From the sequence record MT446404.1: a DNA stretch of 51,754 nucleotides. One strand, given 5' to 3'. The stretch's first letter is position 1, and each line of letters opens with the position of its first letter. Under the pieces are notes generated by a model. It had not been told where the DNA came from. It made no database searches and saw only the letters and a program-made list of their open reading frames with translations. This DNA is from Escherichia virus TH30. This document shows positions 1 through 51,754 of this stretch, in pieces. Made by a program: the position numbers and the translations under genes.

Positions 1-427
1 TACGCGACTGGTTGCGTTAATCAAGTGGTTACATGTAGATATTTGTAATCGCGTGTATGCAATGGCGTTAGTTACATAAAATGGCTATCCGGAACAGCTA
101 TAGCTAGATGTAAATAGCGTGTATATCGTGTATATCATTTTTCTCGGAGGGTGCATTAGTGTATGCGTGATTAGATACTGTATAAATAACCATATTAGAA
201 ATTTATAAGAGGAACACTCTATAGAAGTAGTTACACGATATACACAGTAATATATATAATAATAATAATAAGAGTAAAAGGTTGATATATATAGATATTT
301 TAATGTAACTATCGCGTAACTAGGCGTAACAGCGCGTATATCATTTTCCGCGGATGAGATTGTATACATCGAGTTACATCGGTTACATGTATATCGTTGC
401 ATTTACTGCATTATGAGGATAAAATAA
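1..427. repeat. Left copy of exact 427-bp direct terminal repeat; AT-rich, dense in GTTAC/GTAAC and short direct repeats
   Basis: Window start matches 51328 onward; six-frame ORF 85..402 is identical in translation to ORF 51412..51729 (offset 51327). Confidence 0.9.
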
Positions 428-454
428 ACGCTCACTAACACTGGAGGATTCAAT

Positions 455-763
455 ATGTCTGGATTGCAAGCGTGGGATGCAAACGGGAACATCGTCGCAG
501 ACCTGGGAGATTACACGATTAAATTCATAGGACGATATTCGATGAGCATCGCCGACAACGCCTCGACCGCCTCAATATCCGTTGGCGGGATTGATGGCAA
601 TAACTCATTCGCCAATGTCATGAAAACAAATGGAACCACTGACGGGTCGATACGAACTGACATCGTGGCGAAGACTAAAAGCGGAGGTGTGGATCTGCTA
701 TACCTGCCAACTGGTAACTCCGGTGGCGTCACCGCAGATATTGAAGTTTACAAATTCATGTAA
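455..763 (+). CDS. hypothetical protein (102 aa)
   Basis: ORF with GGAG-type RBS just upstream; no recognisable motif. Confidence 0.4.
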   Translation: MSGLQAWDANGNIVADLGDYTIKFIGRYSMSIADNASTASISVGGIDGNNSFANVMKTNGTTDGSIRTDIVAKTKSGGVDLLYLPTGNSGGVTADIEVYKFM

Positions 764-772
764 GGGGGAATC

Positions 773-1423
773 ATGTCGGGATTTGAAGTCTTCAATAACG
801 CTGGCGTATCTGTGATTAACTCAGATCACAAACATTCGCTATTTGACTCAATATACAACCCAAGCGTTCCTTACGTCGGGGATTACGATCTTGGCACAAA
901 GTTCGGGAACCTTAGCGAGTTGGGATACATCAATACCATTGACAGGAGAAAGGACGGCTTTTTGTACTGGATACAGTTTACGCAGAATGACGCCTGGGCT
1001 TTCCCTGGATCTGATCTGTTCAAGGCTGGTAATTTCAGAGTAATAAGGACCAGCAGGACTAAGGAGATCACGTCTGGATACTGCGACGTGTTTGACTCTA
1101 ACGGTCAGTTGATTTGGAGTGCTGCGAGCGCTGGTACAATGCCACGCATCATGGGATTTCTTGATGTAGATCCTTCATTCGATCTCAACAATAACATAGC
1201 GTCAGTAACTCCAGGCTTTAATCCTTTCTTCTTGTGGGGCGCTTGCGCTGGCTCAATGAGTACGGATGGCGTAGTCGCTGGCTATTCCGGCAACCTCATG
1301 CGCTGGACCGGATCGCAACTACAAACGACGTGGATTAACCAGAACCAGAGAACATTCCAGGAGATTTATAACGGAAGGGGAAACATGAAAATCCCTTACG
1401 CAAAATTCCAGGGTTACAACTAA
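773..1423 (+). CDS. hypothetical protein (216 aa), possibly tail/adsorption-associated by position
   Basis: ORF 10 nt after the previous stop, convergent with the J-like fibre gene. Confidence 0.4.
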   Translation: MSGFEVFNNAGVSVINSDHKHSLFDSIYNPSVPYVGDYDLGTKFGNLSELGYINTIDRRKDGFLYWIQFTQNDAWAFPGSDLFKAGNFRVIRTSRTKEITSGYCDVFDSNGQLIWSAASAGTMPRIMGFLDVDPSFDLNNNIASVTPGFNPFFLWGACAGSMSTDGVVAGYSGNLMRWTGSQLQTTWINQNQRTFQEIYNGRGNMKIPYAKFQGYN

Positions 1424-1497
1424 CAGCACGAATAGCTAAAACAAATCCCAAGGAAGGGTATAGAATCACCTCATCCTAAACAAATGAGCAAACACCA

Positions 1498-1836
1498 ATG
1501 AAAAAATTAATCATCGTAGCGGCCCTCTTAGCGTCATTCAGTGCGAACGCTTTTAATGCAAATATCGGCTACTCAATTCCGGCAGCGCGCATCTCCCTGA
1601 CTGGTGAGGTGAGTTTCACTATTGACTGTGCCACGAAAGAAATTGAGATTCACGACTCAACTAACGAAATGTTCACTCGCCACATCAAAGCGAACAAAAG
1701 CGTGATGTGCTACAAGGACGATAATGTGTATAACGTAACATTCAAATATGAGCGCGGTAGCAAGGTAATCACTAACCTGCTCGCCACTCAGCCGAATAGA
1801 TTCCTTCCAAAACCTAACACCGTAGAAATGATGTAA
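1498..1836 (+). CDS. secreted protein with N-terminal signal peptide (112 aa)
   Basis: N-terminus MKKLIIVAALLASFSANA is a classic Sec signal with AXA cleavage site; no lipobox Cys. Confidence 0.5.
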   Translation: MKKLIIVAALLASFSANAFNANIGYSIPAARISLTGEVSFTIDCATKEIEIHDSTNEMFTRHIKANKSVMCYKDDNVYNVTFKYERGSKVITNLLATQPNRFLPKPNTVEMM

Positions 1837-1866
1837 AAAAAGGGGCCAATCGGCCCCTTAATTATT
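1834..1866. terminator. bidirectional rho-independent terminator between convergent genes
   Basis: A-run, GGGGCC-aatc-GGCCCC hairpin, T-rich tail. Confidence 0.7.
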
Positions 1867-4800
1867 ACCACAATCCCATCCTTACTCGTAACCTCCCGCT
1901 TGCGTCATAAACCTGAATGATGTTGTTGCTAATCACCATTCGACCAGTGCCAGCATTTCCGTTCAGTTCAAAGTTGCCATTCTTATCAATCGCCCACCCC
2001 TGACTTCCTTGAACGTAGTTGTTAGATTGTATCCTGTTACCAATCTTCGCGTTCGTGATTGAACCGTCCTGGATGAATGCGCTTTGCATAAACACTTGAT
2101 TATTTTCCACTACAAAAGGCAGTGACCACTGACCGGAACCACTACTAATCCCGTTACTGATCGCGAACCTTCCAGCGTCAAAAATCATCTGGCTGCGAAC
2201 ATTTCCACCGGAACCAACTAGCTCCATGCTCATTCCTGCCCCATACTCCATGCCGTTGTACTTAAGGCCAAGTTTAACGCCATACTGAACGCCAACCGAA
2301 CCTGCTGATGCGTATGACTCAAGTTTTTGCGTTAGCGCCGCCTCGTTATTACCAATCCTTGAGCTTAACGCTGTGTCAGCGGATGTTCTCGCATCAGTCT
2401 CCGTTGCTAGTGCTGTTTTAACTTCAGTGATAGAAGCCACAACCTCGTTATCGATCTGCGCCTTTAACTCAGTCATTGCCTCAACCCTTGCCTGCGTTTC
2501 ATCAGTGATAAGATTTACTGCCTGTGTGAATTGAGCCTTCCTATTTCCGCTCTCCTTCCTCATAATCTTAACATCAGCATCATTGGCAAGGGCATTCTCA
2601 AGTATTGATTCAGCCTGGTTCTGTATGCTAGACGCTGACTTATTCGCGTTTTCAAGTAAGTACTTGTAACCCTCAGATTGTTCTATATCAACCTTTATTT
2701 CACCAATAATTGCAGATACATCATCAGACGTCATACCTCTCACAAAGTCAGTCCACGGAGACTGATTACCTATTCTGTCTATCAATCTCGCCCTGTACCA
2801 AATTACCATTCCGGCTGGTAGCGTTGAGTGCCAGTATTCGTGCTGAGGATAAGGAATAAGTGTTAACAGTGATGCGTTGTCTGGATTGTATGTGCCGTCA
2901 CCGTTATCTTTAACTTGCTGCAATTCTATGTATGCCGTGTCGCCTGAATCGGCAGGGAATCCCCACTTAACCCTAATCCCAAAAACCTCGTCCGTACTGG
3001 CTGTCATGTTAATCGGCTTACTTGGTAGCCCGACCTTGCCAGTTAACCCAGCACTCACAACTCCAGACCATGGAGACGCATTATCGCCGCCTGAGATGCT
3101 CCTTACACGTACGTGATAATTGCCTGCATAAATCCCTTCAACCTCAACTTCCGAGTTTGCTGTGCGCGGTACGTTCATCCAGTTGCCGTTATCCTTGCGC
3201 CACTGCACATCGTACTTGCTCGCGTACTGAACCTTATCCCATCCGATGACCATCGTTTCAACGCTAAGCCCTTGGACAATTCTTGAATACGAGCTAACGC
3301 TGATATTCTTCGGAGGCTGCATATTGTCAGGGTCAACAATACTGGTTGGCCTGTCATCAATATTTACGCCGTAGTCGATTTCGTCGTACTTATTCGGATC
3401 GTATTCAACTGCCGTGATGCTGTATGTAAACTCATCATCTCCGTCGCCCTTCGTAATTGCCGTTACAACGTATTGCTGCAAAGCTATGTCAGTGCGGTCG
3501 ATTGCGAATACTGTGTTTGGTTGAACATCAAAGCCAAATCCAACGTTAAGCTCAATAGTTTTCCCGTCCGCAGACACCTTTGAAATTGTCCGGCGTACCG
3601 GATTTCCGTCAGCCTTGTTCACGATAATGAAATCACCAGCGCGCGCATCGACCTTAAAGTGTGTGAACACTTGCAGGCCAGACACTTCCATCACACGACC
3701 TGATAACGAAAGCGTCAGGTTACTTGACCAGAAGTTATCAGCGATTGCTACCACGTCGCCAATCATAGGAATCATACCCTCAAGTCCAGTTGCAAAACTC
3801 ACCGTCGTGCTGCGAAGGTTTGTCTTGAGAACCCAGCGGCCCCGTCGGTTCGCTTCACTGCGTCGAGTACATCCGATCGCTGTGATGCTTGTAGGGTTAT
3901 GCCCGAAGCGTAACGAAGCGTTAAGGTCGAACACCCCCTCGATGTCCTGGCTGTACATATTCTGCTCGTCGTCGAACGTGACGTTGCAGGTTGTGTACAT
4001 GCTTTTTTCACTTGCGAACGTATAGGCAAATGAGCCATCAACGACGTTATCGTTAGTGAAAATATACGACGCCTCTCTCGGTCGGTCGATGACAATTGAA
4101 AGGCTCTCGCCGTTCCAGAAGCTCATTCCACGGAATATTGAGCAAATGTCTCGCACAAGATTGTACGCTTCAACCTGAGATTGAATCACCACATCGCAAA
4201 GATAGCGCGGCTCTGTTCCGCCGTGACCGTCTGGTACTTTCTGATCGCAGTATTGACCAGCATCATAGAGTGACCACTTATCAACCGCGATCCCCAACTC
4301 ACGCTGGTCGAGTCCGTAGCGCTGATTGGTGATCAAATCATAAAGCACCCACGCTGGATTATTTGACCATGCTTTTTTAAAGCTCCCATCCCATGTGCCG
4401 CTATACTCTCGAAGCTCGGGATTGTAGTTACTCGGCACGTTAATGATTTTCCATTTCTTTTTCGTGCTAATGCTTGGGATCTGCGGGAATAGCTCGCTGT
4501 TAAACTCGACGTAAACAAGACCGGTCAGAGGGTAACGGAATTTAGCGTCAACCACTTCCGCGTAAGACTGAATGTTTATCGTGTCAACGACGCGCGCATC
4601 AGTTGAATCTGAAGTTACACGGCGGACTCGAAGCAATACCTGCTCATTAAACGCAGGAAGATCGATTCTCTTTGTCTTGTCATATCCGCTAATAGTCTTC
4701 CCGTCTATTGTGTCCAGCAACACCTCCTGATAGCTCCCGCCATCAACCGCCATGTCAACGGCCCACTTGACAACTACACCTACCATATCGCCGTTTTCTT

Positions 4801-5197
4801 TCGTGGTAACGCCTCGAGGCATCAGGATTTTTACGCGGACTGCCGATAGCTGCTTGTTAGTTACCGAGATCACGTAAGGCGTCGTTGTTTTCAATTCACG
4901 ACCTACAGTGAACTCAGCAGCCGTGTCGTTGAAGCCTTTGATGTAATCCTGCGTCTGCGTACCAGGTCGGAACTCAGCCGTTACGCCTTCATAGTTAACC
5001 TCACCGGAAGGTGCAATTACAGGAACATCATTAAGATACAAGTCCTTTAATGAGAAATTAGCATCAACCTCGCCATCACTAACAGCGAGCAAAACCTTAA
5101 TCTTGTTGATTGAGATCAGGTTATCTTCCATCTCCTGTGGGGTATGCGGCTTGCTGCTTCCACCCTTTCGGCCCGTCACTACACTATTTTTAATCAT
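1865..5197 (-). CDS. central tail fibre / host-specificity protein (lambda J-like, 1110 aa)
   Basis: Size and position downstream of I/K/L/M homologues; fibronectin-III-like internal segment. Confidence 0.75.
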   Translation of the reverse strand: MIKNSVVTGRKGGSSKPHTPQEMEDNLISINKIKVLLAVSDGEVDANFSLKDLYLNDVPVIAPSGEVNYEGVTAEFRPGTQTQDYIKGFNDTAAEFTVGRELKTTTPYVISVTNKQLSAVRVKILMPRGVTTKENGDMVGVVVKWAVDMAVDGGSYQEVLLDTIDGKTISGYDKTKRIDLPAFNEQVLLRVRRVTSDSTDARVVDTINIQSYAEVVDAKFRYPLTGLVYVEFNSELFPQIPSISTKKKWKIINVPSNYNPELREYSGTWDGSFKKAWSNNPAWVLYDLITNQRYGLDQRELGIAVDKWSLYDAGQYCDQKVPDGHGGTEPRYLCDVVIQSQVEAYNLVRDICSIFRGMSFWNGESLSIVIDRPREASYIFTNDNVVDGSFAYTFASEKSMYTTCNVTFDDEQNMYSQDIEGVFDLNASLRFGHNPTSITAIGCTRRSEANRRGRWVLKTNLRSTTVSFATGLEGMIPMIGDVVAIADNFWSSNLTLSLSGRVMEVSGLQVFTHFKVDARAGDFIIVNKADGNPVRRTISKVSADGKTIELNVGFGFDVQPNTVFAIDRTDIALQQYVVTAITKGDGDDEFTYSITAVEYDPNKYDEIDYGVNIDDRPTSIVDPDNMQPPKNISVSSYSRIVQGLSVETMVIGWDKVQYASKYDVQWRKDNGNWMNVPRTANSEVEVEGIYAGNYHVRVRSISGGDNASPWSGVVSAGLTGKVGLPSKPINMTASTDEVFGIRVKWGFPADSGDTAYIELQQVKDNGDGTYNPDNASLLTLIPYPQHEYWHSTLPAGMVIWYRARLIDRIGNQSPWTDFVRGMTSDDVSAIIGEIKVDIEQSEGYKYLLENANKSASSIQNQAESILENALANDADVKIMRKESGNRKAQFTQAVNLITDETQARVEAMTELKAQIDNEVVASITEVKTALATETDARTSADTALSSRIGNNEAALTQKLESYASAGSVGVQYGVKLGLKYNGMEYGAGMSMELVGSGGNVRSQMIFDAGRFAISNGISSGSGQWSLPFVVENNQVFMQSAFIQDGSITNAKIGNRIQSNNYVQGSQGWAIDKNGNFELNGNAGTGRMVISNNIIQVYDASGRLRVRMGLW

Positions 5198-5242
5198 GAT
5201 GTTTAGCCTTTCGTGCGATTTATCGAGGTTTCATTATACAGG

Positions 5243-5270
5243 CACAAAAAAACCCGCGCAAGGCGGGTTT
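5243..5270 (-). terminator. rho-independent terminator (minus strand) between I-like and J-like genes
   Basis: CCCGC-gcaag-GCGGG hairpin followed by U-run on the minus-strand transcript. Confidence 0.55.
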
Positions 5271-5273
5271 AAC

Positions 5274-5867
5274 TTAGGCCATATCTTCCGCAACGCTGTA
5301 GGCTGAGAACGTTGCTCCGCCTACCGTTCGATACCCATACGGCACAGGGATCGGGTTTCCTGCTGCGGTCGTGTTTACTGCGCCGCCGAAGGCGTATGAT
5401 GGTTTGTTCTTACTGCTTTGAACCTCCATCTTTGATCCGCCCTGCTGCGGTGAAATCATCTGCATTACGCCACCGAGAACCATTGCGCCGCCCATCATGA
5501 ACGCTGACGTTGCGAACGTACCCATAAGAGCCAGTGATGCGCCGCCAGTGTAGAATGCCGCCACCATCATCACCGCGCCGACAACAATCTGGAACATCCC
5601 TCCATTTTTTGAGCCTGTTGGAATAGGTATGATCCGAACTTCTTTCGCGCAACTGAATGCCGATTCATCATGTGGCCCAACGTTCTTACCATCAACGAAC
5701 ACAGCGAAGTGCATACGAGAGCCGATCTCGCTTTGCATGAACTCCTTGAATCCCGCAACCTGAGATGATAGCGCTCGGATAGCCTCGGGGTATGAGTCAA
5801 CATCATATTTGTGGAAAACGCCGAACCTGCGGCCCAGCGATCCTGACAGCTTGATTGTTTTTAACAT
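5274..5867 (-). CDS. tail assembly protein (lambda I-like, 197 aa)
   Basis: Gly/Ala-rich hydrophobic C-terminal half; synteny K-I-J. Confidence 0.55.
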   Translation of the reverse strand: MLKTIKLSGSLGRRFGVFHKYDVDSYPEAIRALSSQVAGFKEFMQSEIGSRMHFAVFVDGKNVGPHDESAFSCAKEVRIIPIPTGSKNGGMFQIVVGAVMMVAAFYTGGASLALMGTFATSAFMMGGAMVLGGVMQMISPQQGGSKMEVQSSKNKPSYAFGGAVNTTAAGNPIPVPYGYRTVGGATFSAYSVAEDMA

Positions 5868-6586
5868 TTATCTAACTCCTTATGCCTGCATATCATTACC
5901 GTGTGATCCTGGAACCATCCTGAGTAAATATCCGTCTTTGATAGCTTACCAAATGCGTGATGTAGGAGTTGATTATTGCCAAGGTAAATCCCTGCATGGT
6001 TCCATACATCAGATTGTAATTTCATGATAATCATGTCACCAGGCTCAGGATCCTTTCCGGTTTCAACAAAACCCTCTTTAATGTAGTTGTCCTGGTATAG
6101 ATTCTCACCATACTCAGGTTTCCACCACTCGTAAGGTTTTCTGAAGTCATTCAGGATTACGCCTTGCTCCTTGTGCCATGCCATAACCAGCCCCCAGCAA
6201 TCGAAAGAGCCAAGCGACCAGGGCCGACCAATCAGCGGCATGGCTTCTGGATGAACGATTCTCATGTCACCTTCCGGCAGGCTTACAATCACCCATGGCA
6301 CTTCCATCTCATTCAATACGCACAGGTCATGCGCGCTTGGTAAAGTGGTTGCCCCGTCGCCCGTATGGCTGTGCACGATGGCGATCGTGGTTAGGTCGGC
6401 GTCATCCTCAATGCAAGCGTACTGTACCGAATGAAGCTGAAAACCTTTTTCCGGTTCTGAGTGAACGTTGTCAACGGGCCAGTATTTCTGAACCCGCCCC
6501 TTTTGAGTCACCACGCCGCAACATTCATTGGGGTATACTGATTTCGCATGTTCGAAGATTGCCATCTTAATTTTGCCGTTAATCAT
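5861..6586 (-). CDS. tail assembly protein K-like with JAB/MPN and NlpC/P60-like parts
   Basis: HSHTGDG...SAHD resembles the JAMM HxH...D metal site; Cys-containing N-terminal part; synteny. Confidence 0.65.
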   Translation of the reverse strand: MINGKIKMAIFEHAKSVYPNECCGVVTQKGRVQKYWPVDNVHSEPEKGFQLHSVQYACIEDDADLTTIAIVHSHTGDGATTLPSAHDLCVLNEMEVPWVIVSLPEGDMRIVHPEAMPLIGRPWSLGSFDCWGLVMAWHKEQGVILNDFRKPYEWWKPEYGENLYQDNYIKEGFVETGKDPEPGDMIIMKLQSDVWNHAGIYLGNNQLLHHAFGKLSKTDIYSGWFQDHTVMICRHKELDKC

Positions 6587-7329
6587 TGGTTTTTCCTGTC
6601 AAGTGATGCGACCGCGCAGCCGCCGAAATCTAATTCATTTTTGTCGCCAAATCGTAATTTGCAGGCAGTTACCGTTCCTGCGCATACGTCCTGTGATGGA
6701 TCAGTTACTGGATTGTTGTCTTTGTCAAACATCCGACTTCCATTATAACCACACCCATTTCCGCTACGATACCATCCACGCTGCGCCCAAAAACAAACGC
6801 TCTGAGTGACTCGCGGTGGAATCATGATTCCGTCCATGTCGTATGGTGAGGTAAGGTCAAATCGCGCAACATTCTGATCCACGAAGTTAGGTCGCTCAAC
6901 GTAGTAAACGTATTTCCTGAAGTCACCAGGGGAAACGTCGCCGTTGCTGCCGAGCATTTCTCGTGATGTTATCCAGATGGTCACCTTGGCCTGCATCATG
7001 CCGTTGTAGGACCGAATAAGTGCCGATACTCGACTATCAAGGTTAGATAAGGTTAATTGTGGCTTTCCAGCCTTTCCGTTACCGTTTAGGTCAATTCCTG
7101 ATATGCCGAAAGGACGAGCGCCATATTCATTTCCCTGAAAGGTGATCGTTTTTGGCTGAAGGCTTCCGCCTGGCTGAGTTGCTGCGAGAATCTCCTCCGG
7201 CGTAAACTGGATGTTCTCGTTGTGGAATCGGTAGACCTGCGCGCCGAATTTCGTTCCGTCAACGTCAATTAGCGTCATGATCTCACCAGGGAACAGCCCC
7301 TGCAATACGTTTTCAAACTTAGGCGTCAT
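6583..7329 (-). CDS. minor tail protein (lambda L-like, 248 aa)
   Basis: Position between M-like and K-like genes; C-terminal Cys cluster. Confidence 0.6.
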   Translation of the reverse strand: MTPKFENVLQGLFPGEIMTLIDVDGTKFGAQVYRFHNENIQFTPEEILAATQPGGSLQPKTITFQGNEYGARPFGISGIDLNGNGKAGKPQLTLSNLDSRVSALIRSYNGMMQAKVTIWITSREMLGSNGDVSPGDFRKYVYYVERPNFVDQNVARFDLTSPYDMDGIMIPPRVTQSVCFWAQRGWYRSGNGCGYNGSRMFDKDNNPVTDPSQDVCAGTVTACKLRFGDKNELDFGGCAVASLDRKNQ

Positions 7330-7340
7330 GGTATTTCCTC

Positions 7341-7372
7341 CAATAAAAAAGCCCCCGTTAGGAGGCTTTATT
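7341..7372 (-). terminator. hairpin plus U-run between M-like and L-like genes
   Basis: GCCCCC-gtta-GGAGGC imperfect stem flanked by A/T runs. Confidence 0.4.
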
Positions 7373-7720
7373 CTACACTGCTGTGAATGCTTCTACAATG
7401 GTGCATTTTACTACGAGAAGTCCGCGACCGATTGGCTGAGTATTCAGCGTATCCGGCTTCAATAAGAATACGCCAATATTGTCCTCCGGCGGAGTGAAGG
7501 CAAAGGCTTTCAGTCGGTGAGATCGCAAAAATTCGCGTACTTCCTTCCAGTCTTTTCCAACGTAGCTGATTGCGTACTCTCTTCGCTCGGTGTTATAGCC
7601 AGACGATGCAACCTGACGGAACCCGTTTCCAAACTGCACCTGTCTGTCATTGTTGGTGACTGTCATTACACCGCCACCATCCTGAACCTGCACGCACCAC
7701 TTGAACACGTCTAGGGCCAT
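7373..7720 (-). CDS. minor tail protein (lambda M-like, 115 aa)
   Basis: Size and position immediately downstream of the tape measure gene. Confidence 0.55.
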   Translation of the reverse strand: MALDVFKWCVQVQDGGGVMTVTNNDRQVQFGNGFRQVASSGYNTERREYAISYVGKDWKEVREFLRSHRLKAFAFTPPEDNIGVFLLKPDTLNTQPIGRGLLVVKCTIVEAFTAV

Positions 7721-7723
7721 TTA

Positions 7724-10636
7724 TTACGCTCCTGCTTTTCCGTTGATGTAATTGTAAACTTCGCCACCCTGGGAACATGATTCCTGAATCATTTGCTTGA
7801 AAATCATTTTCACGCCCTGCTCCATGCCCTTCGGATCGCTACCGTTATTGATGCTAACAGGGATACTTCCGATTGTCACGCCGCCAGCCATGATTGCACT
7901 ACCGACGCCACCGCTTGAAGTTCCACCAACCACGCCGCCATTCGCATAACCTCGCATCATTCGATAAAGGTTATCGACGCCAATTCGCTTGGTAGCTTCC
8001 TTGGTCATGACAAACTCACCTTTATGAACCGTGCCCGCTGGCTCATACTTACCGCCATCTCCGGTATAGCCGCCAGTGGCGAACCAACCTGAGTTGGCGA
8101 AGGAGAACCCCTTGCCGCTGCCGCCGCCCATCATGCCTGACAGTGAGTTAAAGATTACCATCTGCGTGATCATCTTAATGATCTGGCTGATAATGCTCTT
8201 TGCAAAGTCAGCAAAGTTAGCCTGGCCCGTCATCAGGAACTCGGTCATCATGTCTGTCAAACCGTTAAGGGCGTTACTTGCAATATTTTCTACGTTTCCG
8301 TACATATCCATAGCACTTTCGCCGTAGTCCGCAAATGCTTTCTGCGCCCCAGCAAGCCAGTCGCCTCGTTTCTCATCCTCATTGGCGTAATACTCGTTCT
8401 GCTTGTCAATCATTTTCTTGAGAGCTTCATCATCCTGACCGCCTCCCTTAGCCATGTACTCCGCTCGGATCTTCTCAAGCTGAATCTGGCGCTCTGCCTC
8501 AATAGTACCCATTGCGCGCGTTGCGTTAAGGCTTTTACTCGCTGCGTCAATCTGCATGATGAACTTCATTGAGTCGTCATTCAGTTTGTTGATCTGCTCC
8601 TGCTTAACAATTTGATCGCCAAGCTCCGCTTTCTCCTTCGCTAACGAAAGCACCTTTTGCTGACTGGCGAGCAATGCCTTTTCCTCGTTGGTCAGTTTAC
8701 GCTTGCTTTGCGCGTCCTGTAGGATTGAGATTTGAGCCTCAGTAGCCCACAGCGCCCGACGCTGGCTTGAGATCTTGTCGTTAATAGACTTATGATCTTC
8801 CAAAACTTTAAGCTGCGCCTTGAGAACATAAAGTTCTTTATCAAGCTGCTCGGTCGCACCTTTTGTGATGGCTCCCTTCGTGCTCTTAGTTTTCTTTCTG
8901 TTCTGCTCTTCAATGGCTTTCGCTTCCTTTTCTACAGCCTCCTTTGTCTCCTTGCTGTATTGCTTCTCAAGATCGCGTCGGCCCTTAAGTGCATTGATGT
9001 AACCCATCTCGCCCTTTTCTACTCGCGCGTTAATCACGTCAAGATCTTTTGCAAGGCTATCGTAGGTGTCCTTGGAGTTCTTAACGATAGTTTGCTGCTC
9101 GTTGAGAATATCCTTACCGAAATCACTCATACCAGGAAGGCTTTGCGTTGCCTTGATTGCCGATGCAATAAAGTTAGAAATGTATTCGTCACCCTTGGCG
9201 AGAATCATTTTCACCTGAATCACCGTACCGCTAACCACATCAATGATGAGGTTTAGAGCGCCGAGTGTATGATCGCCAACCCAACCCCAGGCGTCGGATG
9301 ACCATTTCTTAATGTCAGTCCACATTTTCTCAAGCGGCGTTGCTGTGCCTGCGATCTTGCTCATGCGTTCTTCCATAGTGTCAGCAAACAGCTTGGTCGC
9401 CGCCGTCACGGCTTCTGTTTCACCCTTGGCTTTAACAATCCCGTTGATATAGGTCAGCTGGCCTTTCTCAAGGAAGTTGTATTGCTCGTTCAGTTTAGCC
9501 AGACCTTTAACCGGATTATCTGCAATCTTGTCGAAGTCTTTAATAATATCGCTTGATGCTCTGCCCGTTGCGGCTGACCATTCAGCGGTGGCGCGGGTAA
9601 TATTCCTGATTTGGTCTTGGGTATATTTCCCACTCTTAGCAAGCTCAGTAGCGATGTCGCGGACGGTTCCGATAGTCGCGTTTCCAGTATCCGCAATCTT
9701 TGTTGCGATCTGGTCAAGGTCTGCCGCGCTCGCTGCTGCAAATCCGCCAGTCTCAATCAAGGCATTTTTCATGTCAGTGATGGATCGGTAGGAGTCGTAA
9801 CCAGATTTAGCCAGGCCAGCCAGTGCAATACCCATAGCACCCATACCAACCGTTACCGGATTAAGGTACGAAAGCAAAACCTTAAACGTGTTACCAATGC
9901 CGCCGAATGAGTCCTTGATCTGTCCGCCCTGCTGGATTGCAACCAACCATACTGGCATTCCGGAAGCAAGGGAAGTAACTACGTCGGTAATCTGCATTGG
10001 AAGAATGCGCAATGCGTTCTTGTACTCGCCAGCGGAAAGACCAGCCGCATTTGTCGCTACAGTCTGCTTATTCATCGCTGCGATTAAAGGAGCGGCCTGA
10101 GCAGACACGCCAAGCTGCGCCGCCTTCAATTCCAAAAGCTCTGTTTTGGTCATTGTCGCGGCGTTAGCTTGTTCTTGCAGTGATTTAAGGAATCTGTCAG
10201 CGTCCTTTGTTGCCGCCTCTTTGGCCTTTGAGTTAGCCATAGCCGCGCGGCCTTCTTCGGTCAGTGCCATCTTGGATCGGTTAAGTGCATTGATCTGAGT
10301 TTCAATCATGCTTGACAGATTGAAGAACTCGGCGTCTGGAACTAGGCCTTTGCTCCAGAGGTTGTCCAGGTCAACGCTCGCCTTCTGCAATTGACGCATT
10401 TTTCCGATTGTAGGATCGATAGCTTTCTCTACGTCGGCAAATTCTTTCTTCTGGCGCTTAACCTCGTTGTTGAACTCTTTCATCTTCTGCTTTGCGACTT
10501 GCTCTGCATCAATGAAATTGTCAAAGCTCTTTCCGGCTGTGTTATTCGCCCTGGATAAGTCATCCAGAGATTTAACCGCCGCGTCAACCTGGGATACGTC
10601 AACCCCAAGCGATAGCCCTGCAAATTTATCTGTCAT
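7724..10636 (-). CDS. tail tape measure protein (970 aa)
   Basis: Very long Ala/Lys/Glu-rich coiled-coil protein with Gly-rich C-terminal region, downstream of G/GT. Confidence 0.85.
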
Positions 10637-10650
10637 AAAACCCCCATACG

Positions 10651-10672
10651 AAAAAAGCGCCCGTAGGCGCTA
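10651..10672. terminator. hairpin with flanking A/T runs between GT chaperone stop and tape measure start
   Basis: GCGCC-cgta-GGCGC stem. Confidence 0.45.
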
Positions 10673-11301
10673 TTATTTTTTGTGCATTTGCTTAAGCGCT
10701 TCCGCTTCCATCACACGCACATCATTTAAGGCCATTTCTTCACAATCTATTTTATAGATTCGAAATAGCATAGGCAAGACATTATAATCAAGCCCGTAAG
10801 CTCCGGCTCCGGCAGACCTCCATTGAGTTTGCATTGCGGTGAATACTTCCCATGACTGGTAAGTTTCCTCGTCAAATTGCAATATCTCCGGATCTTCGTT
10901 GTCGTAGTCCTCACGGGTTAATCCGTATGCCTCAAGTTCTGCGTCGGTGGGCGTTCGCCTGAATAGTAGCTCGACCGCCCGTTTTAGTTTTTTACTCGGT
11001 AGCCAGCCAGTGCTTGAGTGTAGGTTGAGATCAGGCCACCAACAACGGCAGGGTAACTATCAACCAGCTTGTTAATGTTTTCATCATTGAACTCATCCTC
11101 AAGCTCCCACCCGCTAGCCAGGGATTTTACAAACTGAGCACCAGTCTGATTGCTGGCTTCTTTCAGCGTGGCGTTAAGCTCAGATGACGTCAGCGCCTTG
11201 ACAGTGAATGCAAATGTAGCTTCAACTCCGTTAGGCAATACGAATTTAACCGGAAGCTGGAAGTCTGGCAGGCGTTCAGATAGGGTTACTTTAAAGCTCA
11301 T
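10673..11301 (-). CDS. tail assembly chaperone GT-like fusion made by -1 programmed frameshift
   Basis: mRNA reads GUA AAA AAC UAA at the G stop; the -1 frame is open from the slip site through ORF 10673..10882. Confidence 0.5.
10984..11301 (-). CDS. tail assembly chaperone (lambda G-like, 105 aa)
   Basis: Acidic small protein between major tail and tape measure genes; ends on slippery heptamer. Confidence 0.6.
   Translation of the reverse strand: MSFKVTLSERLPDFQLPVKFVLPNGVEATFAFTVKALTSSELNATLKEASNQTGAQFVKSLASGWELEDEFNDENINKLVDSYPAVVGGLISTYTQALAGYRVKN
10987..10993 (-). promoter_or_regulatory. slippery heptamer A_AAA_AAC for -1 ribosomal frameshift
   Basis: Plus-strand gtttttt = AAAAAAC on mRNA, directly before the G stop codon. 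Confidence 0.5.
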
Positions 11302-11345
11302 GGTGTTTTCCTCTTTGTTTGAATTGGTGATATTAAATCATAAAT

Positions 11346-11370
11346 AGAAAAAGGGGGCAATAGCCCCCTT
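11346..11370 (-). terminator. rho-independent terminator downstream of major tail protein gene
   Basis: GGGGGC-aata-GCCCCC hairpin then U-run on minus transcript. Confidence 0.65.
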
Positions 11371-11373
11371 GTA

Positions 11374-12045: not shown

Positions 12046-12058
12046 AGTTAATGCTCCT

Positions 12059-13676: not shown

Positions 13677-13692
13677 AGTAGCTTCCTCATGT

Positions 13693-13720
13693 TAAAAAAA
13701 AGGGACGCATCAGCGCCCCT
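13693..13720 (-). terminator. rho-independent terminator (minus strand)
   Basis: A8 run on plus strand then GGGACGC-atca-GCGCCCC hairpin. Confidence 0.5.
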
Positions 13721-13725
13721 ATAGG

Positions 13726-13998: not shown

Positions 13999-14074
13999 GT
14001 TTATTTCCTTTTGATTAGTTTAACGAGTGTATTGCCTAGGCGTTCAATGTAATCGTTTTGATGTTGCATGTCAA

Positions 14075-14105: not shown

Positions 14106-14110
14106 TTGTC

Positions 14111-18164: not shown

Positions 18165-18166
18165 GA

Positions 18167-40835: not shown

Positions 40836-41321
40836 TTATTCTCCGTGATTCTTGTGAAATTTAAATTTTCTTTGAAATTGCATTCTACACAATTTCGCTT
40901 CTTCTATCGAGTTAAAGTAACCAAGATGCATTAACTTTCCGTCAACCTTTATCCTTGCGCAATACTTTGATAGCGGCTTGTGCCACGACACGCCCGTAAC
41001 TCCGGTTGAATTATCAATTCGTATCGACTGGTTTCTTCCGTTTTCCTTTCTTGTGACAAGCCTGAGGTTAGATATGCTGTTATTGCTCCTGTCATGGTCT
41101 ATATGGTCTATCTCCATTCCATTAGGAATTTCACCGTTATGTATATACCATACAACAATATGAACCCTATAGTTTTTCTTGTTAAACATCATTTGCCAGT
41201 ATCCAGTCACTTTACTGGCGCAACCGCACTTGCTTCCAACCTTTATCTTTTTACTCTTTGATTTCTTCCATACTAAATGAAGTTCATCATCATACTCTAC
41301 AAAATCAATAAGCTCATTCAC
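40836..41321 (-). CDS. HNH homing endonuclease (161 aa)
   Basis: EIDHIDHDRSNNSISNLRLVTRKEN motif. Confidence 0.85.
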   Translation of the reverse strand: MNELIDFVEYDDELHLVWKKSKSKKIKVGSKCGCASKVTGYWQMMFNKKNYRVHIVVWYIHNGEIPNGMEIDHIDHDRSNNSISNLRLVTRKENGRNQSIRIDNSTGVTGVSWHKPLSKYCARIKVDGKLMHLGYFNSIEEAKLCRMQFQRKFKFHKNHGE

Positions 41322-46015: not shown

Positions 46016-46078
46016 AGTATTAAATGCCTTTCATGTTCGTTCGATTGACGTTATAATAACAACCATCGAAACCAATGT

Positions 46079-46095
46079 TTAACAAAAAGTGCTAT
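46079..46095 (-). promoter_or_regulatory. conserved 17-bp motif upstream of helicase gene, in divergent region
   Basis: About 65 nt upstream of helicase ATG at 46015. Confidence 0.5.
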
Positions 46096-46581: not shown

Positions 46582-47578
46582 AAATCAAGGTTGTGCCATA
46601 ATTGGTGCAACCTTTTTTATTGGAGTAAAAACAGTGAACGAGCCGAATTACCAGAAAGAAGAAGTCCTGCCATACATGAAAGGATTATGGCGTGAGGCAT
46701 TGCAATCAATCTGTGGGTTGCAGTCCGTCGTATTCAATAAGAAGCACCAGCCATGCCCTTACTGCGGCGGCAAGGACCGTTTCCGTTGGACTGATGAACT
46801 GGACTCTCCTGGTGACGGCGGAGCTATCTGTAACGGATGCGGGAACGACAAGGGCGTTGGCTGGATGATGAAGCTGACTGGTGAGCCTTACAGTGAAGTG
46901 ATTAATATTCTCGGTCGATTCCTTGGGAAAGTTCCGCAGGATTACAAAGCCAAGGCTTACCGCAGGGCGTCACGCGTACCGGAAAAGGGATTAGGAAAGA
47001 TGGCAGATCATGAGTCATGTGTAGCTGTAATGGATCGCACGGAGAAGCGCGAGAACACCGATTTAAGCATGTATGAATGCTTAACCGAAGATTCATATGA
47101 CGTTGGCGTAAAAGTGCGTCAGAATGGTTCTGAAGAGCTAATACACGCACTACCTTGCTACATGGTTCATCCTGACGGGATTGATGAGGATATGTGTAAC
47201 GTCATGTTTGCTTATGATAATGGAGAATACACTTTCCTTGCGCGCGATTATTCTCGCGGCTCAGTTGTTAAGCTGGGGAGTGGCGAAGCGGATGCAGCCA
47301 TATATATGACAAGCGATCTTATTGATGGCTACAGAGTGAAGATGGCTACCAGTCAGGAAGTATGGGTGACTTTCTCCCCTGAGAATCTTGAGATCGTTGC
47401 TTATCGGTATCGTGGCGAAAGGGAATTGCGTGTAGCGTGTCCGGCAGATGATTTGAGAACGCTTTACATGGCTGACGAGCGAGATTTAAAAGTGGTTGTG
47501 CCGAACGGCGGAAACTTCAAAATGGGGCTTGAGCGAAAGCTATATACACCGCAGGATCTGATAGATAAGTATTCATAA
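46553..47578 (+). CDS. DNA primase with zinc-binding domain (341 aa; true start may be GTG 46634)
   Basis: CPYCGGKDRFRW...CNGCGN zinc motif; adjacent to helicase. Confidence 0.6.
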   Translation: MKQHEKLKNENQGCAIIGATFFIGVKTVNEPNYQKEEVLPYMKGLWREALQSICGLQSVVFNKKHQPCPYCGGKDRFRWTDELDSPGDGGAICNGCGNDKGVGWMMKLTGEPYSEVINILGRFLGKVPQDYKAKAYRRASRVPEKGLGKMADHESCVAVMDRTEKRENTDLSMYECLTEDSYDVGVKVRQNGSEELIHALPCYMVHPDGIDEDMCNVMFAYDNGEYTFLARDYSRGSVVKLGSGEADAAIYMTSDLIDGYRVKMATSQEVWVTFSPENLEIVAYRYRGERELRVACPADDLRTLYMADERDLKVVVPNGGNFKMGLERKLYTPQDLIDKYS

Positions 47579-47583
47579 CAATT

Positions 47584-47606
47584 ACCCGCTACGGCGGGTT
47601 TTTTTA
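47584..47606 (+). terminator. rho-independent terminator
   Basis: ACCCGC-tacg-GCGGGT hairpin plus T7. Confidence 0.7.
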
Positions 47607-47632
47607 TGCCTGACGTAATGCTACAATGTGCT

Positions 47633-47649
47633 TTAGCAATTAGTGCTAT
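47633..47649. promoter_or_regulatory. conserved 17-bp motif in flipped orientation upstream of a plus-strand gene
   Basis: TTAGCAATTAGTGCTAT, 25 nt upstream of ATG 47674. Confidence 0.45.
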
Positions 47650-47673
47650 CAACCAAATAAAGGGTTTACAATT

Positions 47674-48993
47674 ATGGCAACTTATGATGAAGGAACCGCA
47701 TCACTAGCTGCGGACGGTACTGTAACTGGTGTTGGTACGTCATGGAGAAAGCCGCTTACACTTATTCGTGTTGGCGCGACCATGATATTCAATACATCCC
47801 CAATAAGTATCGTCACGATAGCTGAGGTTTTAAGTGATACAAGTATTAGGGCTTTCAATGAAAAAGGGTTTACTGCTCCGGCTGGAACGCAGTACTTCAT
47901 CCTGGCTCACGATGGAATTACCGTGGAGGGGCTAGCGCAAAACGTCGCTGAAACTCTTAGGTATTATCAATCTCAAAATTGGGTTCTTGCCGATGAGAAT
48001 GGAAATGTAAGGATAGAAGATGGCGGTACTGGTGCAAGCGACGCGGCTGGCGCGCGCAGTAAGTTAGGTTTAGGCTCGGTGGCAACGATGAGCAATGTAC
48101 CATTAGCAAATGGTGGTACAGGTGCTACGGATGCTGCTGGTGCACGTAATAACCTGGAGCTTGGTCAGCTTGCAACGGAAGATGTTGCTAGCATAAACAA
48201 CGGTGGGACTGGTGCAACCAGCGCAGAAGGTGCACGTAATAACCTGGAGCTTGGATCTGCTTCCACATTGAATGTCGGGGGTAACAGTGGAAACGCTATG
48301 AGGGTTGGTGATTTCGGATTAGGAAGGCCAGACGGTGCTATGGTTTTTAATACCACATCTCAAGATGTGCTTCTTGCTGGTTTGGATCAATATGGATTAA
48401 CTGTATTCAGGAACAACCAACAAATTGCAGCGCCGTGGGATATCTGGAACTATTCATCAAACCTATTCTTTAGGGCTGGCGATACTTACAGTATGTTGAG
48501 CATCCCCTTTGAACAATCAGGTAAGGTTAAGGTTTTCGGCGGGGCTGCTGGATCTGGATGGAAGACAGGTCGCACACTACTCGATAGCACAATCACAACT
48601 GTTGACTCGAACGGATTTATCAAACAAGCGTCACCGATTGTCAAGGTTTTTGGTGATGGTAAGTATGAGGTGAACGAAGAATCAGAAGGGGCTATAGTTG
48701 AACGAGTTTCTGTAGGTGTTTACAGGATTTCAGGCGTACTAGGCCTTAATTCAGATGCAGCGTGGGGGGGTGTTAACGGCGGATTTGAGATACCACTTGA
48801 TATTAACAAGCAAGCAAGGGTGTGGATTGACTACAAGGTTGAGCCTGAGGGATCTATAATCCTTAAAACGTATCACCGAACTTACGAATCATCTCCTTCA
48901 TTTGCAACAAACAAGATTGATGGTTTTAATAATGGAGATCCGATAGATATACCATCTGACGCATTCATTTCTGTTCGTGTCAATATGCCATAA
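47674..48993 (+). CDS. tail fibre-like protein with three GGTGA(S/T)..AGAR..L(G/E)LG repeats (439 aa)
   Basis: Repeats between about 48018 and 48290 including an exact 26-bp duplication. Confidence 0.55.
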   Translation: MATYDEGTASLAADGTVTGVGTSWRKPLTLIRVGATMIFNTSPISIVTIAEVLSDTSIRAFNEKGFTAPAGTQYFILAHDGITVEGLAQNVAETLRYYQSQNWVLADENGNVRIEDGGTGASDAAGARSKLGLGSVATMSNVPLANGGTGATDAAGARNNLELGQLATEDVASINNGGTGATSAEGARNNLELGSASTLNVGGNSGNAMRVGDFGLGRPDGAMVFNTTSQDVLLAGLDQYGLTVFRNNQQIAAPWDIWNYSSNLFFRAGDTYSMLSIPFEQSGKVKVFGGAAGSGWKTGRTLLDSTITTVDSNGFIKQASPIVKVFGDGKYEVNEESEGAIVERVSVGVYRISGVLGLNSDAAWGGVNGGFEIPLDINKQARVWIDYKVEPEGSIILKTYHRTYESSPSFATNKIDGFNNGDPIDIPSDAFISVRVNMP

Positions 48994-49020
48994 AAAAAGC
49001 CCCGAAAGGGGCTTTATCTT
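48992..49020. terminator. bidirectional terminator
   Basis: A7, GCCCC-gaaa-GGGGC, T-run. Confidence 0.7.
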
Positions 49021-49025
49021 TTACA

Positions 49026-49478
49026 TCAGAACGGGATGTCATCATCGAACTGCATAGACTGATTAGGTTGCTGCTTAGGCTGCTGGTGCTTTTGCTGAGG
49101 CTGCTGCCGTTGTTGTTGCTGGCCTTGGCCCTGCTGTGCTGGCTCACGCTGACTGAATTGCAACTGAGGTCGGATCATTTCGGCGGTCACATACACAGTG
49201 CCGTCATTTCCCTGGCGCGACGCTAAGTGAAGCGTGTCGGCGGAAATTGATACAACCTTACCTTCCTGGAACGCCTCATCATACCACTGCATGACGTTTT
49301 CTTTTGCAAAGAACGTAGCGCGGTAGTTACTGTAAACCGTTTCATCCTCGCCCTGCTGATTGCGAATCTTCATACGTTCTGACAGTTCGACGGCGTACAT
49401 TTTCCAGCGACCATTATTGTTACTGCCTTCTTTGGTGAATGGTGCTTTACGGATCTGACCAGTGATTACGTGTGGCAT
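49026..49478 (-). CDS. ssb: single-stranded DNA-binding protein (150 aa)
   Basis: Gln/Pro-rich linker and acidic C-terminal tail DDDIPF. Confidence 0.85.
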   Translation of the reverse strand: MPHVITGQIRKAPFTKEGSNNNGRWKMYAVELSERMKIRNQQGEDETVYSNYRATFFAKENVMQWYDEAFQEGKVVSISADTLHLASRQGNDGTVYVTAEMIRPQLQFSQREPAQQGQGQQQQRQQPQQKHQQPKQQPNQSMQFDDDIPF

Positions 49479-49516
49479 TTTATTTTCCTTGTTGGATGGG
49501 GCCGAAGCCCCGTTAA

Positions 49517-50173
49517 TTAGAATTGCTCGATGGATTCAGATTGTACAGGCTCGGACGGTGCATTTGCAACCTTGTCTTCAACCTTTTGCACATCTGCCTT
49601 TTTCGCTGGCTGGAATCCGCGAGCGCTACCGATACTCAATTCAGCCTTACGCTTCTGCAAGTGGTCTTCTGCAATCTTCCATTCCGCCGCGCTGAGTGAA
49701 CCTTTCGCGCTCTTATAGATCACCTGGAGGGCTTCCAGTTTTTCGCAGTTGGTGATCAGTTTTTTGTAGTCTGCCGCCGTGCGCTTCGCGATTTCTGCGT
49801 CGTCATCGCTCTGAGTGATTCCAAGCGCTGCGCATAATGCATAACGGCGACCGTATGAGGTTGTAGAGCCGTAAGCCTGAGCGCTAATCTTCTCGATCGG
49901 CATGTTGTACTGGAACGCAAGCCACTCGCCGGAACTATGAAGGATGAGTGTTTCAATGTGCATTACCTTCTCGGTTGACGTGTCCAGGTTTGACTGGATA
50001 ACCATAAGGTCATGCTCTTTTAGCGCTGGCTCTACGGCCTCCAGAACGTCCGTCAGGTTTGAATAATGGCTTTTCAGGTGAGTGTTGAAGCCTGATTTTT
50101 TTGCGATGGCAAACTGCTTTTTAGCTGCAATTAGAGCGGCTGAAACATTCGAAAACTTCTCTGATGTACGCAT
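49517..50173 (-). CDS. erf: Erf-family single-strand annealing protein (218 aa)
   Basis: N-terminal pattern LKSHYSNLTDVLEAVEPALKEHDL resembles Erf core. Confidence 0.55.
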   Translation of the reverse strand: MRTSEKFSNVSAALIAAKKQFAIAKKSGFNTHLKSHYSNLTDVLEAVEPALKEHDLMVIQSNLDTSTEKVMHIETLILHSSGEWLAFQYNMPIEKISAQAYGSTTSYGRRYALCAALGITQSDDDAEIAKRTAADYKKLITNCEKLEALQVIYKSAKGSLSAAEWKIAEDHLQKRKAELSIGSARGFQPAKKADVQKVEDKVANAPSEPVQSESIEQF

Positions 50174-50236
50174 TATATATACCTTTGTTTACTTCGTTTG
50201 ATTTACGGTGATTATAGCAAATCACCGCATTCTTGT

Positions 50237-50253
50237 TTAGCAAAAAGTGCTAC
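50237..50253 (-). promoter_or_regulatory. conserved 17-bp motif (variant GTAGCAC...), upstream stop TAG embedded
   Basis: Stop of exonuclease gene is the TAG of the motif. Confidence 0.5.
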
Positions 50254-51290
50254 GCTTCCAGGATGTGCTTGAACTGCTTCATGATCCAGTCAGGAGTTTC
50301 AAGCTCTACTTCCGGCTCGCCGTTATTGTATGAAGGCCAGACGTCGTTGGCTTCGCACATTGAGAAGGTGTGGATCACGCTCATGTACTGCGCGCGCCCA
50401 ATCTTAAGCTGATCGCCGCTCATCCTGTACGCCATCGGCAAGTAAGGCTCCTTCTTCTCCTGGGCCAGCAAGCGGACAACTACAGGTCGCGTTTCTTCAA
50501 AGCATTTAACGAACAAGTCACGCTGCAATGCCATCTTGAGGTAGTAGCCAAGGTTGAACGCCAGGCGCGGAAACTCAGTCGGGTTAGCGCTCATTGTCGT
50601 CTTGTAATCAGTGATGACGACAATTTCAGGATGAATTTCAGGATCGTAACCCATTCGCCGGATCGCTTCTGGATCTTTAACAATATCAACATGGTCAAGC
50701 CGCACCTTTACTTTTACTCCGCAAATTACGCCGAACAACGAATACTCACGGAATGCCGTTTCGCTGTTCATGCAAGCGTTATGCTCAGGAATCATTTCAA
50801 GAACCTGACGCATACTGACGCAAGCGTCGTAGTCTTCCGCCTTAACCAGTTCCACACCATCTGCCCACGCCTGACACTGTGCGATCATATCAATCAGCCA
50901 CATGACGTTGAGTTCTTCGCCACAATCAATCATCATTTTGATCAGTTCTGGATATTGCTTTCCGCTTGTACCAGTCAGGCCAAATGATTTTAATTTCGTT
51001 GCCAATGCTGCCTGGCTTGTGATTACGTTTTCAATCTCGCTATCTTTCGGTGCGCGGCGATACTGGCGTTCAAACAGTGCCTTACTCTCGAAATTGGTAT
51101 GCGACTGCGTACCGAATACCAGTGCCTTAGTCGTCGAGTTCATTTCAAACTTCCACGCCGCAGGGCAAGTACTGTGGATCTTGCTGAGTGACGAGCCTGA
51201 TACATAATCGGCGGTCCACTCATCTTTGCTGTGGTAAAAGTCGTTACTCATTTCTTCTGACGTGAAGTATTGAAAAAGTGGCTTGGTCAT
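50250..51290 (-). CDS. PD-(D/E)xK recombination exonuclease (YqaJ/lambda-Exo-like, 346 aa)
   Basis: Motif VVITDYKTT; adjacent to Erf and SSB. Confidence 0.55.
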   Translation of the reverse strand: MTKPLFQYFTSEEMSNDFYHSKDEWTADYVSGSSLSKIHSTCPAAWKFEMNSTTKALVFGTQSHTNFESKALFERQYRRAPKDSEIENVITSQAALATKLKSFGLTGTSGKQYPELIKMMIDCGEELNVMWLIDMIAQCQAWADGVELVKAEDYDACVSMRQVLEMIPEHNACMNSETAFREYSLFGVICGVKVKVRLDHVDIVKDPEAIRRMGYDPEIHPEIVVITDYKTTMSANPTEFPRLAFNLGYYLKMALQRDLFVKCFEETRPVVVRLLAQEKKEPYLPMAYRMSGDQLKIGRAQYMSVIHTFSMCEANDVWPSYNNGEPEVELETPDWIMKQFKHILEA

Positions 51291-51327
51291 CTCTTTAATC
51301 CTCGTTCGTTGTTGATGTGGCTAACTA

Positions 51328-51754
51328 TACGCGACTGGTTGCGTTAATCAAGTGGTTACATGTAGATATTTGTAATCGCGTGTATGCAATGGCGTTAGTT
51401 ACATAAAATGGCTATCCGGAACAGCTATAGCTAGATGTAAATAGCGTGTATATCGTGTATATCATTTTTCTCGGAGGGTGCATTAGTGTATGCGTGATTA
51501 GATACTGTATAAATAACCATATTAGAAATTTATAAGAGGAACACTCTATAGAAGTAGTTACACGATATACACAGTAATATATATAATAATAATAATAAGA
51601 GTAAAAGGTTGATATATATAGATATTTTAATGTAACTATCGCGTAACTAGGCGTAACAGCGCGTATATCATTTTCCGCGGATGAGATTGTATACATCGAG
51701 TTACATCGGTTACATGTATATCGTTGCATTTACTGCATTATGAGGATAAAATAA
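51328..51754. repeat. Right copy of exact 427-bp direct terminal repeat
   Basis: Same sequence as 1-427 running to the last base of the window. Confidence 0.9.

Follow-up and report, generated by a model that had tools for sequence, protein, structure and literature searches.

The exact repeat at both ends of the window, i.e., of the whole 51,754-nt stretch of Escherichia virus TH30 DNA (MT446404.1) analyzed here, is very probably an ordinary assembly artifact, an overlap left on closing a circular read graph, and not a pair of physical virion ends. In full agreement with the preliminary description, bases 1-427 and 51328-51754 are identical without a single mismatch, and the pair was also detected by the repeat finder (family D1). 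When prefixes and suffixes were compared over the whole window, 427 nt was the sole and longest length at which both coincided, and an exact match of this size cannot have originated by chance. Since both copies touch the contig ends, the repeat stops on its outer side where the contig stops, independently of any sequence feature. Subtraction of one copy gives a unit length of 51,754 - 427 = 51,327 bp.

1-427, no strand: left repeat copy, 33% GC, identical to 51328-51754
51328-51754, no strand: right repeat copy, redundant with 1-427

The initial reading had left undecided whether the ends represent a true short direct terminal repeat (DTR) or an overlap from a circular or permuted assembly. 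An independent 51,327-bp circle, the end overlaps of sibling records and a terminase of the T1 type speak for the overlap and against the DTR. As is typical of untrimmed circular-contig overlaps, exact identity is confined to the two contig ends, removal of one copy leaves an independently closed unit, and sibling records behave likewise with other overlap lengths and positions. Unlike such overlaps, the repeat exceeds the k-mer-sized overlaps that de Bruijn assemblers commonly leave, and it has a non-random position, coinciding with the AT-rich minimum of the genome.

In practice, the contig represents a genome that is complete at 51,327 bp. Ahead of annotation, genome-length statistics and taxonomic assignment, one of the repeat copies should be trimmed, and the duplicated open reading frame 85-402/51412-51729 should be counted once. 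Completeness tools of the CheckV type take the end-overlap signature termed "DTR" as indicating a complete viral genome; a "DTR" on a database contig is not a readable packaging mechanism.

Closure in an independent assembly and end overlaps in related records

The same phage is contained in Logan contig SRR11772968_2123 (run SRR11772968), which comprises 51,357 bp, i.e., 51,327 + 30, the self-overlap of 30 nt being deduced from the lengths and not read directly as sequence. Three pieces of this contig, 15,908 bp in all, matched the circularized unit with 100% identity and a single constant offset. One of them spans the junction (unit 47250-51327 followed by 1-2963) and has the element once, flanked by the exonuclease gene and gene 455-763. 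The contig ends map to 20467-20496, inside terL. A closed circle of unit length with one repeat copy was consequently recovered in an assembly independent of the deposited record. A literature search retrieved no paper citing SRR11772968.

In related assemblies, end overlaps differ in length and their positions bear no relation to each other. The TH21 record has an exact end overlap of 872 bp that maps to window positions ~2274-3130, inside tail gene J, and the TH27 record has one of 402 bp at window positions ~30885-31287, in another intergenic region, yielding a TH27 unit of 52,344 - 402 = 51,942 bp. Four of nine whole metagenome contigs carrying the element end in or beside it, at relative positions 145, 255, 278 and ~432, such that the site is not fixed. 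An apparent shared start in the Rtp-like metagenome locus L026 (OERO01000045.1, 44 kb), within ~7 nt of the homologue of window base 1, was rejected because the locus (contig range 38211-44077) starts at a storage boundary internal to the contig; P0001 and P0002, cluster relatives of L026 protein P0052, provided only contig breaks in a downstream Rha-like gene. A search of IMG/VR with the exonuclease protein and an invariant 32-mer of the element yielded isolate genomes only, the window not being among them, and nothing on ends.

Base composition of the intergenic region

According to the map of open reading frames, the repeat lies in a divergent intergenic region of 37 + 427 + 27 = 491 bp with the following parts, internal elements and partial paralogue:

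51291-51327, no strand: intergenic remainder left of the repeat, 37 bp, upstream of the exonuclease VIII start codon
428-454, no strand: intergenic remainder right of the repeat, 27 bp, upstream of gene 455-763
241-328, no strand: AT-rich conserved core, ~20% GC over 100 bp, with an 81% identical copy at 30870-30957 (repeat family D3)
110-148 and 316-354, no strand: internal 39-nt direct repeat, 72% identical (family D4), with a weaker third copy at 30724-30762
30724-30957: partial paralogue of the element, within the second divergent intergenic region, which by gene order is the counterpart of the T1 left end, where the terminal redundancy starts

Bases 1-427 are effectively the most AT-rich stretch of this length in the genome (rank 25 of 51,327; the global GC minimum starts at base 16). 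Among 100-bp windows, the two richest in AT, at 213 and 30853, are the sites of the overlap in the window and of that in TH27, respectively. The two copies of the 39-nt repeat flank the AT-rich core, the 32-mer AAGGTTGATATATATAGATATTTTAATGTAAC is invariant among Nouzillyvirus, Rtp and metagenome contigs, and the motifs GTATATC and GTTACA are strongly enriched in the element. A scan of bases 1-900 for sigma-70 promoters and terminators returned four promoter-like sites vs. 3.1 expected, and bases 1-700 gave no match in Rfam.

The following origin of the repeat appears most probable. Reads of the phage would form a 51,327-bp circle because pac-type headful packagers have virion DNA with terminal redundancy and partial permutation, and because DNA forms concatemers during replication. 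After one passage around this circle, the assembler would have left both contig ends overlapping, with neither copy trimmed. A break in this intergenic region would be due to its AT content, the highest in the genome, and to the short repeats that it has in common with the paralogous region, both of which may render it the weakest link for an assembler. Packaging that starts at pac and proceeds by headful cutting would by itself be expected to produce redundancy on the kilobase scale and of variable length.

The following points speak against a closure overlap. The 427 bp lie wholly inside one intergenic region of 491 bp, for which the chance under random placement is ~64/51,327 or ~0.1%, 427 is not a usual k-mer overlap, and a record that was rotated and padded after a PhageTerm call of "DTR (short)" would look the same.

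Packaging type and alternative readings

The assignment of the phage as T1-like was confirmed, its nearest records belonging to the family Drexlerviridae, genus Nouzillyvirus. Window positions 428-20000 share 87-92% identity over 75-90% of their length with TH21, XT34, TH27, ESCO41 and p111, all listed under Nouzillyvirus in the GenBank taxonomy, and this high similarity to ESCO41, the type phage, and to other members of the genus places the phage in it. Compared with ESCO41, TH21, TH27, P817, PH1062 and ETEP102, its nucleotide identity is 87-92% for most of the structural module and 86-95% for the 427-bp element. The element is single-copy and internal, more than 1.2 kb away from the record ends, in all 13 Nouzillyvirus records listed and is also internal in Rtp-like records. 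At the left boundary, 51327/51328, the listed Nouzillyvirus relatives are colinear and similarity continues unbroken. A homologous terminus position was found neither among these 13 Nouzillyvirus nor among the Rtp-like records, and the overlaps of TH21 and TH27 lie elsewhere.

The features relevant for packaging are:

19481-21064, minus strand: large terminase subunit with Terminase_6C domain, orthologous to T1 TerL (61% identity, full-length)
21124-21642, minus strand: small terminase subunit, P22 gp3 family (Pfam GP3_package), 55% identical to its orthologue T1 TerS
~30.8-31.0 kb: region equivalent to the T1 left end, by T1 gene order and shared core

Phage T1 (Tunavirus) is a pac-site headful packager with limited permutation. 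The combination of a small terminase subunit of the P22 gp3 type with a large subunit of the T1 type is that of pac-type phages, and neither protein belongs to a terminase lineage known to make fixed DTR ends. Judged from the terminase genes, initiation at a pac site followed by headful cutting is the most likely mode of packaging for this phage, and the initial reservation about a fixed short repeat in a T1-like phage is supported. We know of no pac consensus for the family. In addition to the terminase orthologues, both phages share the overall gene order and two AT-rich divergent intergenic regions with a short common core, which in T1 comprises ~78 nt. The T1 arrangement cor - intergenic region - recE, homologous to the site of the element, is located at T1 29623-31442. 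In contrast to the window, the T1 record is annotated with a terminal redundancy of 2,800 bp (1-2800) that begins in the other of the two divergent regions, which corresponds to window ~30.9 kb. Headful/pac packaging has been described for TLS (PMC11447400), SU57 (PMC7718038) and, by PhageTermVirome, for phages of the genera Hanrivervirus and Warwickvirus (PMC13507304). A terminal redundancy of several percent with partial circular permutation is known for T1, TLS and SU57, and all terminus determinations for Drexlerviridae retrieved by the literature searches are headful (PMC11447400, PMC7718038, PMC13507304, PMC4070988). A literature search for termini of Nouzillyvirus phages found none, and none are given in PMC10269720 and PMC11267873.

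Against this background, a true short DTR, i.e., fixed virion ends with 427 bp at both that would arise from site-specific terminase cuts in concatemers with duplication of the repeat, in the manner of T7- or N4-like phages, is considered very improbable. Genuine short DTRs in such phages are typically non-coding. The element resembles them in comprising a few hundred non-coding, AT-rich bases that fit within a single intergenic region, its iterated GTTACA and GTATATC motifs are candidate protein-binding sites, and the Logan result is compatible with a real DTR, which de Bruijn assembly would turn into a circle. The length is within the known range of short DTRs, for which 296 and 410 bp have been reported in Pantoea podophages (PMC9915841). 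Unlike in T7- and N4-like phages, TerL and TerS are orthologous to the T1 headful enzymes and TerS is P22 gp3-like, relatives lack a conserved terminus position, none of the related records listed starts or ends in the element, and the end overlaps of TH21 and TH27 are located elsewhere, one of them inside a gene; the unbroken conservation at the left boundary and the uniformly headful determinations within the family point in the same direction. A physical DTR is not supported, as its sole positive support, the location of the overlap wholly in non-coding DNA, is explained by local base composition. It is very improbable that a T1/P22-type terminase has switched from headful cutting to site-specific ends and produces a genuine fixed repeat by using the conserved, iteron-bearing AT-rich element as the site of cutting and duplication. 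A true physical DTR would signify an unusual change of packaging strategy in a well-studied headful lineage.

Even less credence is given to a deliberate representation, in which the genome was rotated and the repeat appended after a spurious terminus call such as PhageTerm "DTR (short)" on a transposase-made library. Tagmentation or PCR bias is strongest in AT-rich sequence, and AT-rich hotspots mimic termini in transposase-made libraries; the coincidence of the repeat with the most AT-rich sequence and its tidy-looking intergenic placement would fit, but the data give no sign of such a step, and the overlaps of TH21 and TH27 resemble untrimmed assembler output and not curated ends. In practice, this possibility is a sub-case of a repeat that is not physical. 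Least probable of all is headful packaging from a pac site at or near base 1 with a terminal redundancy of ~0.8%, the contig approximating the first-headful molecule. While its 51,754 bp come close to the packaged length of T1 (48,836 + 2,800 = 51,636 bp) and the element has a paralogue in the counterpart of the T1 left end, just as T1 shares its core between the equivalent regions, imprecise headful cuts would not yield a sharp exact repeat, the T1-equivalent left end is situated near 30.9 kb and not at base 1, and in headful phages a redundancy below 1% would leave little margin for circularization by recombination. An interpretation of 51,754 bp as a T1-sized headful was rejected; the headful size of T1 is not transferable because the TH27 unit already exceeds the packaged length of T1.

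Neighborhood of the element in related phages

The closure overlap, as the preferred explanation, is flanked by the following genes:

50250-51290, minus strand: RecE-like exonuclease VIII gene at the left flank, PDDEXK, DUF3799 (Pfam), annotated as exonuclease VIII in relatives
455-1836, plus strand: three genes (455-763, 773-1423 and 1498-1836), cargo between the repeat and tail gene J, unlike that of the closest relatives

In contrast to the structural module and the element itself, the cargo between the element and tail gene J sets the window apart from other Nouzillyvirus members. Similarity to the closest relatives ends at repeat position ~393-404, where the window carries genes of the NBD2/LF82 type. 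For the 70-aa protein encoded at 29227-29439, a look-up returned no record. The 216-aa product encoded within the cargo contains DUF8377. The stretch 455-1836 is matched only by phages of the NBD2, LF82, Henu7 and HazelMika types, in which the same arrangement occurs beside exonuclease VIII, and the adjacency of exonuclease VIII, the element and genes 455-1423 is retained in more distant phages.

Genome organization and the terminal repeat

The window is the complete genome of a T1-like siphovirus. An assignment to the T1-like phages had already been made in the preliminary description and agrees with the closest records, namely TH21, XT34, TH27, ESCO41, p111, PH1062 and P817 (Drexlerviridae, genus Nouzillyvirus), to which identity is 87-92% over 75-90% of the structural region. 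Gene order was taken from an ORF map of the window, in which the morphogenesis module runs from tail J to TerS on the minus strand.

Features of the window according to the ORF map
1865-5197, minus strand, tail J
7724-10636, minus strand, tape measure
14111-15064, minus strand, major capsid
18167-19429, minus strand, portal
19481-21064, minus strand, TerL
21124-21642, minus strand, TerS
after TerS to ~30.8 kb, minus strand, small early genes
~30785-30956, (second) divergent intergenic region
from the second divergent region to 37.7 kb, plus strand, gene block
after the 37.7-kb block, lysis, helicase and primase genes
49026-51290, minus strand, recombination genes ssb, erf and exonuclease VIII

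Three segments of ~113 nt (17135-17247, 39356-39468 and 41050-41162) are 73% alike; the first lies within gene 16915-17397, the product of which has an HNH_3 domain, and the segments therefore probably represent scattered paralogous HNH homing-endonuclease genes. The plus-strand tail fibre gene 47674-48993 contains a periodic Gly-rich coding repeat of three tandem 90-nt units at 48019-48254.

The exact 427-bp direct repeat noticed earlier at both ends was confirmed by prefix-suffix comparison and a repeat finder: bases 51328-51754 equal 1-427 without mismatch, and 427 bp is the sole and longest prefix of the window equal to a suffix, so that the unit length is 51,327 bp. With a GC content of 33% vs. 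47% for the genome, the repeat occupies most of the 491-bp divergent intergenic region (37 bp, the repeat and 27 bp) between exonuclease VIII, whose start codon is located at 51290 on the minus strand, and the plus-strand gene 455-763. A minus-strand ORF of 105 aa (85-402 and 51412-51729) is counted twice in the ORF list because it lies wholly inside the repeat; given its AT-rich non-coding context it is probably spurious, although short hypothetical genes are annotated at this place in relatives.

Origin of the repeat

The repeat is very probably a closure overlap left by the assembly of a circular or permuted genome. This was one of two options raised in the preliminary description and is the best explanation, while the other, a physical direct terminal repeat (DTR), is unsupported as an interpretation of the 427 bp. 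The end-to-start junction is genuine sequence. With a similarity query spanning it, close relatives align without interruption from the exonuclease gene across the left boundary to repeat position ~393-404, and the more distant phages NBD2, HazelMika, LF82-10, IsaakIselin and Henu7 show similarity to the genes right of the repeat as well, with gene order preserved. In all 13 Nouzillyvirus records listed, the AT-rich intergenic sequence making up the repeat (the element) is internal, >1.2 kb from either record end. A mosaic breakpoint is located at repeat position ~393-404, followed by differing cargo (window ~393-1836); between element and tail gene J the closest Nouzillyvirus phages carry Rha-like, lipoprotein or DUF6453 genes and the window three genes common to NBD2-, LF82-, Henu7- and HazelMika-type phages.

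The exact exonuclease protein is also encoded on an independently assembled Logan contig (SRR11772968_2123, 51,357 bp), three pieces of which (15,908 bp in total) match the circularised 51,327-bp unit at 100% identity and at one and the same offset. One piece runs from unit position 47250 through 51327 into 1-2963 with a single copy of the element. The contig is 30 nt longer than the unit, presumably through a k-1 overlap left by a k = 31 assembler, and both contig ends lie within terL, at 20467-20496. Since a real DTR would also be collapsed in a de Bruijn assembly, the contig establishes closure and unit length but not by itself the absence of a DTR.

Among sibling records of the genus, TH21 (MT446395, 52,087 bp) has an exact end overlap of 872 bp that maps to window ~2274-3130 within tail gene J, and TH27 (MT446401, 52,344 bp) one of 402 bp that maps to ~30885-31287. 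Within one genus, exact end overlaps thus come in three lengths (402, 427 and 872 bp) and at three sites, including one mid-gene, as is typical of untrimmed assembler output and not of a conserved terminus. Both siblings are public 'complete genome' records with untrimmed overlaps, and their unit lengths are therefore 51,215 bp (TH21) and 51,942 bp (TH27).

T1 is a classical pac/headful phage. TerL is 61% identical to T1 TerL over the full length and has a Terminase_6C domain, while TerS is 55% identical to its T1 counterpart and matches Pfam GP3_package (P22 gp3 family). Headful packaging has been reported for TLS on the basis of restriction analysis (PMC11447400), and for SU57 (PMC7718038). 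PhageTermVirome assigned the same mode to Hanrivervirus and Warwickvirus phages (PMC13507304), and four Rtp-like phages are reported to be circularly permuted (PMC4070988). For Nouzillyvirus, no terminus data were found in the literature, including PMC10269720 and PMC11267873. In T1, the place equivalent to the repeat is the cor-recE intergenic region (29851-30377); the T1 record begins in the other divergent region, ST1/ST77, equivalent to window ~30.9 kb, and its 2,800-bp terminal redundancy is annotated from there and not from the cor-recE region.

The chance that a random 427-bp overlap falls wholly within the 491-bp intergenic region is ~0.1%, and its position is therefore not random. A true short DTR is unlikely, and an assembly weak spot would account for the placement without a physical end. 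Among all 427-bp stretches of the genome, the repeat is practically the richest in AT (rank 25 of 51,327, with the minimum beginning at base 16). The 100-bp windows with the two highest AT contents, at 213 and 30853, coincide exactly with the overlaps of the window and TH27, respectively, and both regions have a ~100-nt core in common (81% identical). Furthermore, four of nine whole metagenome contigs containing an invariant 32-mer of the element end in or beside it, at differing positions relative to the repeat (145, 255, 278 and ~432), none at the repeat boundaries. Low or uneven coverage together with local repeats may have made this spot the weakest link in assembly. A curated or spurious terminus call is very unlikely as a source of the repeat, and a headful end with small redundancy is the least probable reading. 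A locus of a 44-kb Rtp-like contig apparently starting within ~7 nt of the homologue of window base 1 was rejected as a lead because its start is an internal boundary (contig range 38211-44077), not a contig end.

Nature of the AT-rich element

Judging from sequence comparison, the repeat sequence is a conserved non-coding module. The element (window 1-454 with 51291-51327) is 85% identical to that of Rtp, which is placed in another subfamily, while no nucleotide-level alignment is obtained for the neighbouring exonuclease gene; conservation of the element exceeds that of the genes on either side, and the 32-mer is invariant across genera. The two copies of a 39-nt direct repeat (110-148 and 316-354) enclose the AT-rich core of the element. 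A partial paralogue is located in the other divergent intergenic region (30724-30957), and T1 likewise has a ~78-nt core common to its two equivalent regions (29851-30377 and 48675-48836 plus 1-538). GTTACA (30 in the genome, six in the element, four in the paralogous region) and GTATATC (five of ten in the element) are strongly enriched. Rfam yielded no match for the element, and a sigma-70 scan around it performed no better than chance. Our best guess is that the element may serve as a divergent early promoter/operator or origin-like region used at two places of the genome.

The 18-nt motif TTTARCAANNNGTGCTAT occurs at 20 sites vs. 0 expected from shuffles (e.g., 23329-23346, 23958-23975, 29490-29507, 33180-33197 and 46078-46095). 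In relatives a copy is present just right of the element, where the window has none. The sites examined are intergenic, upstream of genes and oriented with transcription, and the motif appears to match an intergenic repeat family described for TLS (PMC11447400).
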